Assembly (NCBI GenBank): GCA_019057475.1
Contig: DXJO01000010.1
Location: forward strand, 407,623 to 471,622
Length of the DNA stretch: 64,000 bases
Origin: Candidatus Thorarchaeota archaeon
Lineage (GTDB): Archaea > Asgardarchaeota > Thorarchaeia > Thorarchaeales > Thorarchaeaceae
Direction: 5' to 3'
Under the pieces are notes generated by a model that saw nothing but the letters and a program-made list of their open reading frames with translations, was not told the DNA's origin and did no database searches. The position numbers were made by a program, and so were the translations under genes. Below, piece after piece: positions 52,094-54,607 of this stretch. Every line of letters starts with the position of its first letter. Within the stretch, counting starts at the first letter, position 1.

Positions 52094-52516
52094 TCACAGA
52101 ACCATGTTGTCCAGGCCCATTTCCTTCAATACTTCAGGGTAAATCTGGAAGAGTGGCTTAATCTTGGAAAGGAGCCCCAGAGCCTTGGCGACAGAGCCCT
52201 TCATTTTGGTCTGACCTTTCGCCATGGCAACAGTTGTGTTCAGCTTGCCTTGCCAGAACTTGTTGGTCGTTTCAGAGGTGCTCCACACAGATATCTCAGG
52301 CTCAACGTCTGAGTCAAAGGACATTGTGCCTATCTCGCCTGCGGGACCAGGGTCTCTGAAATTCATGGTCACATGAAGTTCCGGTTGTTCTATGTCAAAC
52401 CTGACAACAACCTGCGATTTGGCGAGCTTTCTCATAACCTCTTCATCTTGCTTTGCAAGCACCCAAAATTTCTCGAATACTTCTTGAAGTTGTTCACTAC
52501 TTTCATAGAATGGCAT
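52094..52516 (-). CDS. SCP2 sterol/lipid-binding domain protein
   Basis: FWQGKLN...AMAKGQ.KMKGS...AL.L SCP2 signature; ATG 52516 preferred over 52579. Confidence 0.8.
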   Translation of the reverse strand: MPFYESSEQLQEVFEKFWVLAKQDEEVMRKLAKSQVVVRFDIEQPELHVTMNFRDPGPAGEIGTMSFDSDVEPEISVWSTSETTNKFWQGKLNTTVAMAKGQTKMKGSVAKALGLLSKIKPLFQIYPEVLKEMGLDNMVL

Positions 52517-52579
52517 TATATCGCACTCCGTTAGCTGCTGGAACCTATATCTGGATGAGATAGAAGTCTTTTGGGTCAT

Positions 52580-53881: not shown

Positions 53882-53925
53882 GGCATACTTGCTCCATGGA
53901 AGTTGTTGCGTACCGATGGGTAGTA

Positions 53926-54029
53926 GAAACAGAGGTGCACCAATCCCTTGGTAACAGCCCTTTCAGGGCGTGGCGCACTGAGCATTGCTCGCTTTCCTAT
54001 TCATGTATGACTAGTGCTTTCTCTGTTTC
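53926..54029 (-). ncRNA. Candidate structured cis-regulatory leader RNA of glnA
   Basis: 18-bp closing helix in two stems enclosing two inner hairpins. G-U pairs form only on the minus strand, and the 5' end lies 24 nt from a TATA box. Confidence 0.55.
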
Positions 54030-54052
54030 ACGATGAATGGCGCTTCAAATGG

Positions 54053-54089
54053 GTATAAAATTTTCCTGTGAAAAACAGAACATTTTTCA
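54053..54089. promoter_or_regulatory. Divergent BRE/TATA promoter and palindromic operator between glnA and the Lrp gene
   Basis: Minus strand AGGAAAA-TTTTATAC (54067-54053); palindrome TGAAAAA-N7-TTTTTCA at 54069-54089. Confidence 0.6.
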
Positions 54090-54112
54090 GTTTCATTCTA
54101 CGTAAGTACCCC

Positions 54113-54607
54113 ATGGCCGGAAATTTTTCGAAAGAGCTTGACACGACTGACATGAAAATCCTAGAGCTTCTCCAAGGGAATTGCAAGATGAGCATTTCCA
54201 AGATTGCTAAGAAGGTCGGCAGGGGCATCTCTGCTGTTCACAGCAGGATCAAAGCCCTGGAGAGTGCGGGAGTAATCAAGCAATACACTGCGGTACTCGA
54301 TCCAGTCAAGATGGGACGCTCTGTTCTTGCTATCATCCTCATAACAATACGATACCGCATCCCAGGTAAAGAAGAAGTTCTTTCTCAGCGAGAGTTCTGT
54401 CGGGAGATTGCGCATCACCCCCTGGTTCAAGATGTGCACGTATTGAGTGGAGAGTTCGATGTACTGCTCAAAGTACGGGCACGCTCAATCGATGAGATGA
54501 ATGGGTTCATTGTCGACTTCTTGAGAGGAATACCTGCAGTTGATAAGACGCTCACTATGTTCGCAATGGACTCCTATCTTGAAACGCTGGAATTTAGGAA
54601 CCTCTAG
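54113..54607 (+). CDS. Lrp/AsnC family transcriptional regulator
   Basis: LDTTDMKILELLQ HTH, RIKALESAGVIKQY and SGEFDVLLKV RAM-domain motif; ATG 54113. Confidence 0.93.
   Translation: MAGNFSKELDTTDMKILELLQGNCKMSISKIAKKVGRGISAVHSRIKALESAGVIKQYTAVLDPVKMGRSVLAIILITIRYRIPGKEEVLSQREFCREIAHHPLVQDVHVLSGEFDVLLKVRARSIDEMNGFIVDFLRGIPAVDKTLTMFAMDSYLETLEFRNL

Follow-up and report, generated by a model that had tools for sequence, protein, structure and literature searches.

A structured 5' leader of glnA in Thorarchaeota: a narrowly distributed RNA motif with a possible protein partner

The region between an Lrp-family regulator gene and a glutamine synthetase gene (glnA) of a Candidatus Thorarchaeota archaeon harbors, 5' of glnA, a segment that folds as RNA, which raises the question of what such a structure might do at this place. 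It had been described as riboswitch-like in the original prediction. Hereafter, the window is the whole stretch of DNA analyzed (64,000 nucleotides), G000 is the genome it comes from, g1 is the genus of that genome, and g3, g5, g6, g11, and g12 are other Thorarchaeota genera. The features of the locus are as follows, in window coordinates.

52094..52579, minus strand: SCP2-domain gene abutting glnA; same gene order at loci L131 and L147
52580..53881, minus strand: glnA, type I-alpha glutamine synthetase-like, 433 aa (TIGR00653, PDB match, active-site residues)
53882..53925, minus strand: 44-nt weakly structured spacer, with an SD-like GGAG (53895-53892) 10 nt before the ATG (53881)
53926..53934, minus strand: 3' strand of P1a (sequence pairing, g1 conservation)
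53937..53945, minus strand: 3' strand of P1b (sequence pairing, g1 conservation)
53950..53969, minus strand: P3 hairpin (GCCCU-GAA-AGGGC) and the linker following it, the best-conserved inner block and a candidate binding site
53980..53990, minus strand: GAGC/GCUC hairpin of the window genome, which lacks conservation and is at best a weak stem that varies; the region is 79% identical
53992..54008, minus strand: A-rich linker ending in GGAAA(G); pairwise identity in g1 62% for the linker and 94% for GGAAA
54009..54017, minus strand: 5' strand of P1b, a helix that reaches 11 bp in relatives; in g1, 97.5% of its cells are paired
54021..54029, minus strand: 5' strand of P1a, its first base the putative transcription start; invariant in 11 g1 sequences
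54053..54067, minus strand: BRE/TATA promoter of glnA, same element and spacing in orthologues
54076..54090, no strand: GAAA-N3-TTTC palindrome just upstream of the BRE, a candidate Lrp operator at the DNA level
54113..54607, plus strand: Lrp/AsnC-family regulator gene, divergent from glnA (Pfam AsnC_trans_reg and HTH)

GlnA scores 422 bits against TIGR00653, just below the cut-off of 429, and its best PDB match is the glutamine synthetase (GS) of Methanothermococcus. The equivalents of D50, Y179, and E327 are lost by amine ligases (PMC8394153); in GlnA they are D43, Y140, and E289, all present and invariant, and by these residues the protein qualifies as a type I-alpha GS. An orthologue was found in 57 of 86 family genomes, and the SCP2 gene is probably co-transcribed with glnA, as judged from the gene arrangement. 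A second GS paralogue of G000 is encoded on another contig (L132 1463-2770), after an aminotransferase gene; it has kept the Arg of an RVESSD stretch that is missing from the window GS.

On the other side of the element, the divergent Lrp gene that had been predicted to adjoin it was borne out by Pfam, and the lrp-glnA pair is kept across the orthologues of the family, the close relatives of this Lrp being from Candidatus Thorarchaeota. Of about 60 orthologous promoters, nearly all contain the palindrome with no more than one mismatch, whether a leader is present or absent, and we infer that Lrp binds there. Such palindromes lie between lrp and glnA, often in two to three copies, in nearly all orthologues; those of the window, at 54076-54090 and, by the lrp start, near 54107-54121, form a candidate Lrp operator array. 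At another locus (L150 1623-1801), the gene opposite an Lrp relative of 66% identity codes for a GH94 glycoside phosphorylase; the operator there is similar, and no structured leader was found. The gene that ends just downstream of lrp (minus strand, from 54716 to beyond 64000) encodes a giant surface protein, 3094 aa or longer, that has repeated domains, a single membrane helix at the C terminus, and a charged tail in the cytoplasm.

The leader element itself occupies 54029-53926 of the minus strand (104 nt). In its closing helix, P1, the outer part P1a pairs 54029-54021 with 53934-53926; after an AAA/AC internal loop, P1b pairs 54017-54009 with 53945-53937 and includes two G-U pairs. Inside, the P3 hairpin lies at 53969-53957. 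The BRE/TATA, pairings, internal loop, hairpins, and GGAG were all found in the sequence, base for base, where the original prediction had placed them.

Where transcription begins can be estimated by comparison. P1 begins 23 nt after the TATA in the window; in seven g3 genomes the ATG comes 23 nt after the TATA, which identifies them as leaderless, and the leaderless orthologues L013, L069, L070, and L072 have a TATA-ATG distance equal to the TATA-P1 distance of the window. Since P1 begins at one common distance from the TATA in g1, g5, g11, and g12, its coincidence with the ATG offset of leaderless g3 indicates that the helix probably starts at the first transcribed base, around 54029. The element sits between the TATA and the SD, in what would be the 5' UTR of glnA, and since no second TATA was found between P1 and the ATG, it is taken to belong to the glnA mRNA. 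An upstream open reading frame was considered and rejected: most g1 relatives lack the ATG at 54003, and in g5 the AUG of the P1b strand is not consistently in frame.

The element folds with a predicted energy of -38 kcal/mol and a z-score of -4.11 (none of 200 shuffles was as good), which falls to -1.7 once the 44-nt spacer is added to the folded segment. The closing helix is present in the MFE structure, and the interior is poorly defined, with MFE and centroid differing. In a survey of 220 sampled upstream regions of the same genome, 3.6% had a best window with z of -4 or lower, on a coarse grid on which the element itself scored -2.8; the fold alone is therefore only moderately unusual, and conservation constitutes the stronger evidence. 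Across the genome, helices of at least 14 bp are no more frequent in upstream regions than in shuffled sequence (138 real versus 138 shuffled), and only four of them lie at TATA distance. No second copy of the element was found in the 3.3-Mb window genome, and no tRNA or tmRNA at the element.

Conservation within g1 was measured on 11 distinct same-genus sequences. P1a is paired in 100% of cells and P1b in 97.5%; P1 shows ten extra pair types and one double change, which does not exceed shuffles. The 19-nt block made up of P3 and the next linker has a pairwise identity of 98-99%, compared with 71% in the TATA-to-start spacer and 62% in the A-rich linker. Only one of the two hairpins originally assigned to the junction thus holds: GCCCU/AGGGC is near-invariant, whereas GAGC/GCUC is paired in 74% of cells, with one pair broken in four of five sequences, and a loose, irregular stem may replace it.

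A three-way junction is found in the same place in 23 g5 genomes, in the order P1a, internal loop, P1b, an A/U-rich linker, P2 (GAAAC/GUUUC), P3 (CCC/GGG), and a CCGCAC-like linker, followed in 21 of the 23 sequences by an SD-like GAGG 9 nt before the ATG. On the model-fitted alignment pairing is kept in 92.6% of cells, and both sides have changed in 10 of 22 pairs, more than in any of 500 shuffles or any slid control; on the unfitted alignment the count is 7 of 22, again higher than in shuffled and slid controls, and relatedness among the g5 sequences can inflate such counts. RNAalifold recovered almost no structure from the raw MAFFT alignment, a result attributable to register shifts in GA/UC repeats; a hand-set structure was used in its place, and the counts lean towards it. 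Over 24 leaders the strands of P2 and P3 are 92-100% identical, versus 33-37% in the flanking spacers, an invariance that deprives P2 and P3 of covariation support. The length of the P2 loop is variable, which argues against a DNA operator. The comparison of orthologous glnA upstream regions that had been proposed with the original prediction has thus shown the structure to be kept in g1 and in g5, with compensatory changes. In one genome (G073; L131 1397-1722), only about 70 codons of glnA are left ahead of the SCP2 gene, while promoter and leader remain; this leader, which was outside the model-building set, keeps P1b via G-U changes.

Among the 55 genomes with a readable promoter, the long closing helix is present in 29 (g1, 4; g5, 22; g11, 1; g12, 2); in another two, both g6 (L031, L032), glnA has a different leader, about 110 nt long, whose interior is C-rich and whose closing stem is weaker, and which neither the g1 nor the g5 model recognized; the remaining 24 have a short leader or none. 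This distribution requires at least three changes on the GlnA tree, on which a monophyletic grouping of the leader-bearing lineages is neither established nor rejected (p-AU 0.11). Among candidates scored from 151 genomes of the phylum, the g1 and g5 covariance models had no match outside their own genus, and in every genome searched the element was single-copy, at glnA only.

How much the leaders of the four lineages have in common depends on the part considered. By hand anchoring, all four have GCA/UGC at the base of the helix, next to the internal loop; position 4 of P1b passes through C-G, U-A, A-U, and G-C, all four Watson-Crick types, with adjacent pairs turning over as well, and the length enclosed by P1 stays within 51-63 nt. 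On this comparison P1 is probably homologous across the four lineages. In 94 kb searched with the g1 model, g5 and g11 leaders made up nine of the ten best matches, aligned over their full length, the best at 22 bits (E 0.009). The reverse search with the g5 model gave the g1 element 6-11 bits and skipped the interior, suggesting that the interiors share at most the GGAAA, found at a similar place in g1, g5, and g12, and a CCC/GGG hairpin that in g5 takes the place equivalent to P3 of g1. The g1 and g5 leaders are probably homologous, weakly so by score. As for g11 and g12, they share P1 and have interiors unlike those of g1 and g5.

That only P1, its position, and an approximate loop size are common to the four lineages, the interiors of g11 and g12 differing from those of g1 and g5, would suit a constitutive 5' stabilizer or spacer, devoid of sensing, in which nothing but the long helix at +1 matters and serves to raise the half-life of the mRNA. 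Such a device would leave unexplained both the near-invariant inner stems of the 24 g5 leaders, set between spacers of about 35% identity, and the invariant 19-nt block of g1, and it is regarded as unlikely.

The patchy distribution, with its three or more changes on the GlnA tree, and the inverted ends also bring to mind a miniature mobile element surviving as a relic, or a DNA palindrome, inserted at the start site. Dispersed copies, which had been named at the outset as the sign of a MITE, were not found, the element being single-copy in every genome searched. The original prediction had read the two G-U pairs as evidence for an RNA structure on the minus strand rather than a DNA palindrome, and this reading holds: the sense strand folds better than the opposite one (z -4.11 versus -2.82), and compensatory changes and variable P2 loop lengths point the same way. 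A relic of this kind is largely refuted and thus highly improbable. A blind count of G-U against A-C combinations over all arms, 23 to 15, was set aside as confounded by internal-loop columns.

Alternatively, the element might be released from the mRNA by premature termination or processing and act in trans as a small RNA in the manner of sRNA154, with C-rich loops directed at SD sequences. Its ends are joined by a long helix, C-rich tracts occur inside the interiors of g11, g12, and g5, other closed-stem non-coding RNAs are present in G000, and G073 retains the element though most of its glnA is missing. On the other hand, the shortening of that gene may be a recent event or an assembly artefact; no conserved U-tract follows P1, no second promoter was found in the 35-45-nt spacer, inspection revealed no bulge-helix-bulge geometry, and no anti-SD tract was found in g1. 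Taken together, a released RNA appears decidedly improbable.

The possibility first suggested, a metabolite riboswitch, would have glutamine, glutamate, 2-oxoglutarate, or an amine substrate bind to the junction and stabilize P1a, keeping its 3' strand from pairing with the SD, as an ON switch. The g5 leaders form a three-way junction with near-invariant nucleotides 5' of a metabolic gene, and in about half of the 22 modeled, the freed 3' strand of P1a prefers the SD as its partner. In addition, searches of G000 (96% complete) found no P-II, Amt, or NrpR, despite its two GS paralogues, and the usual nitrogen sensors may be missing; a candidate NrpR box was discarded for its wrong spacing. Aptamer cores are usually conserved far more widely than one family. 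Here, the interior differs even between genera of a single family, and no second copy was found at other genes among the candidates scored. P1 is very stable, with a predicted opening cost of about 4-20 kcal/mol, and opening it leaves the mean SD exposure almost unchanged (from 0.39 to 0.31-0.35 in g1, from 0.26 to 0.19-0.20 in g5). No terminator was found after the element, nor a consistent SD switch. The term 'riboswitch-like' is thus not sustained: a riboswitch is quite unlikely, and a new Thorarchaeota-only class that senses a nitrogen metabolite in place of P-II and NrpR signaling would be an equally slim prospect.

Lineage-specific invariant stems in the absence of a switch are better accommodated by a macromolecular partner than by a small ligand. 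The preferred reading, held tentatively and at somewhat less than an even chance, is that of an undescribed leader, folded and acting in cis at the 5' end of the glnA(-scp2) mRNA, and putatively bound by a protein. Transcription would start around 54029 under the control of the divergent Lrp, and the first base would be drawn directly into a long, probably permanently folded helix, whose structure is supported by conservation. Leaving no single-stranded 5' end, P1 might slow decay from that end; in a search of G000 for a 5' exonuclease that P1 could block, no aRNase J scored above the cut-off and only weak beta-CASP-like matches were obtained, which counts against this stabilizing step. P1 would also hold an inner domain of 55-63 nt whose short, near-invariant hairpins might be recognized by a macromolecule, probably a protein, either GlnA itself or an RNA-binding regulator. 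Binding of this partner could tune how long the mRNA lasts or how ribosomes load on the SD, which lies about 30 nt downstream. As the promoter is shared with many lineages in which the leader is short or absent, the structured leader would represent an optional second layer, after transcriptional control by Lrp.

Other structured candidates came to light in the same genome. Upstream of a PhzF-like gene (L159 ~1075-1160, contig C24 of G000) lies a separate element whose core, about 55 nt long, is almost invariant; the element is present at 14 of 23 orthologous loci, including L164-L168, L171, L174, L175, L178, L181, L182, L184, and L185. Its closing stem changes sequence between genera yet stays paired, and no Rfam match was found; it looks like an undescribed Thorarchaeota non-coding RNA. 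Long closed-stem structures without an Rfam match also lie upstream of genes on contigs C17 (L160, near 10428) and C47 (L161, near 3084), the latter at TATA distance.

With about 40 natural variants, leaderless natural controls under the same promoter, and a defined, if deduced, start, the bounded covarying glnA motif makes post-transcriptional nitrogen control in a lineage related to eukaryotes testable in vitro. If it bound a metabolite, it would constitute a new riboswitch class, and to our knowledge the first native to Asgard archaea; if it bound a protein, it would be a rare archaeal case of leader-based glnA feedback. Its general importance is limited by its narrow range, part of one family.

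Searches of Rfam 15 gave no match on the leader of the window, 13 g5 loci, L104, L111, or the g11, g12, and g6 loci, and the hits obtained at permissive E-values, all inside coding regions, are due to chance. In keeping with the original claim of an undescribed structured leader, the element combines this lack of a match with a single-copy state and conserved pairs that show compensatory changes; literature searches turned up no account of an RNA leader at glnA in this archaeal group, the Asgard archaea. A column-pair scan, noisy and of low power, revealed no stacked pseudoknot or extra helix, and no long-range G-C pair stood out. Likenesses to cobalamin, purine, and ykkC motifs were without model support. 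An archaeal BHB intron or K-turn RNA was dismissed on inspection, the internal loop being 3x2 in g1 and 3x3 in g5, with variable bases and neither bulge-helix-bulge nor tandem G-A geometry, and a link of the GAAAC/GTTTC words with CRISPR repeats on account of their wrong order and the lack of an Rfam CRISPR match.

Known riboswitch classes in archaea are very few, mostly TPP and fluoride (PMC5473149). Glutamine riboswitches have been reported from cyanobacterial and marine sequences (PMC6212724), and the glutamine-I and glutamine-II classes are, like the leader element, 5' leaders tied to the control of glutamine synthetase; glutamine-I even has P1, P2, and P3 stems, as in the g5 form (PMC6212724). 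They are, however, about 55 nt long with a short, ligand-dependent P1 (PMC6212724), in contrast with a P1 of 14-20 bp here. Both were excluded by covariance-model search: glutamine-I (RF01739) had no match up to E 10 in the region, its best genome-wide score being 19 bits elsewhere against a cut-off of 35, which agrees with the unlikeness to the cyanobacterial glnA motif noted at first, and glutamine-II (downstream-peptide, RF01704) had none in the window or the homologous loci. In Halobacterium salinarum, Lrp activates the adjacent glnA, in the same Lrp-beside-glnA arrangement as in the window, and the accessible part of that report describes transcriptional control only and mentions no structured glnA leader (PMC2894021). 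In Methanosarcina mazei, sRNA154 stabilizes the glnA1 mRNA and blocks glnA2 translation (PMC5867862). There too, as is proposed for the leader element, an archaeal glnA is controlled at the RNA level; sRNA154 is intergenic and trans-acting, with many targets (PMC5867862), whereas the leader element lies in cis at the putative +1.

Parallels may also be found in bacteria, which have autogenous protein-binding leaders as well as 5'-terminal stabilizing stem-loops such as that of E. coli ompA. The element resembles these in being single-copy and lineage-restricted, with invariant short stems and a helix from the first base, and has no sequence or Rfam relation to them. What is new is the motif itself; its kind, a structured cis-regulatory leader of narrow range, is already known.
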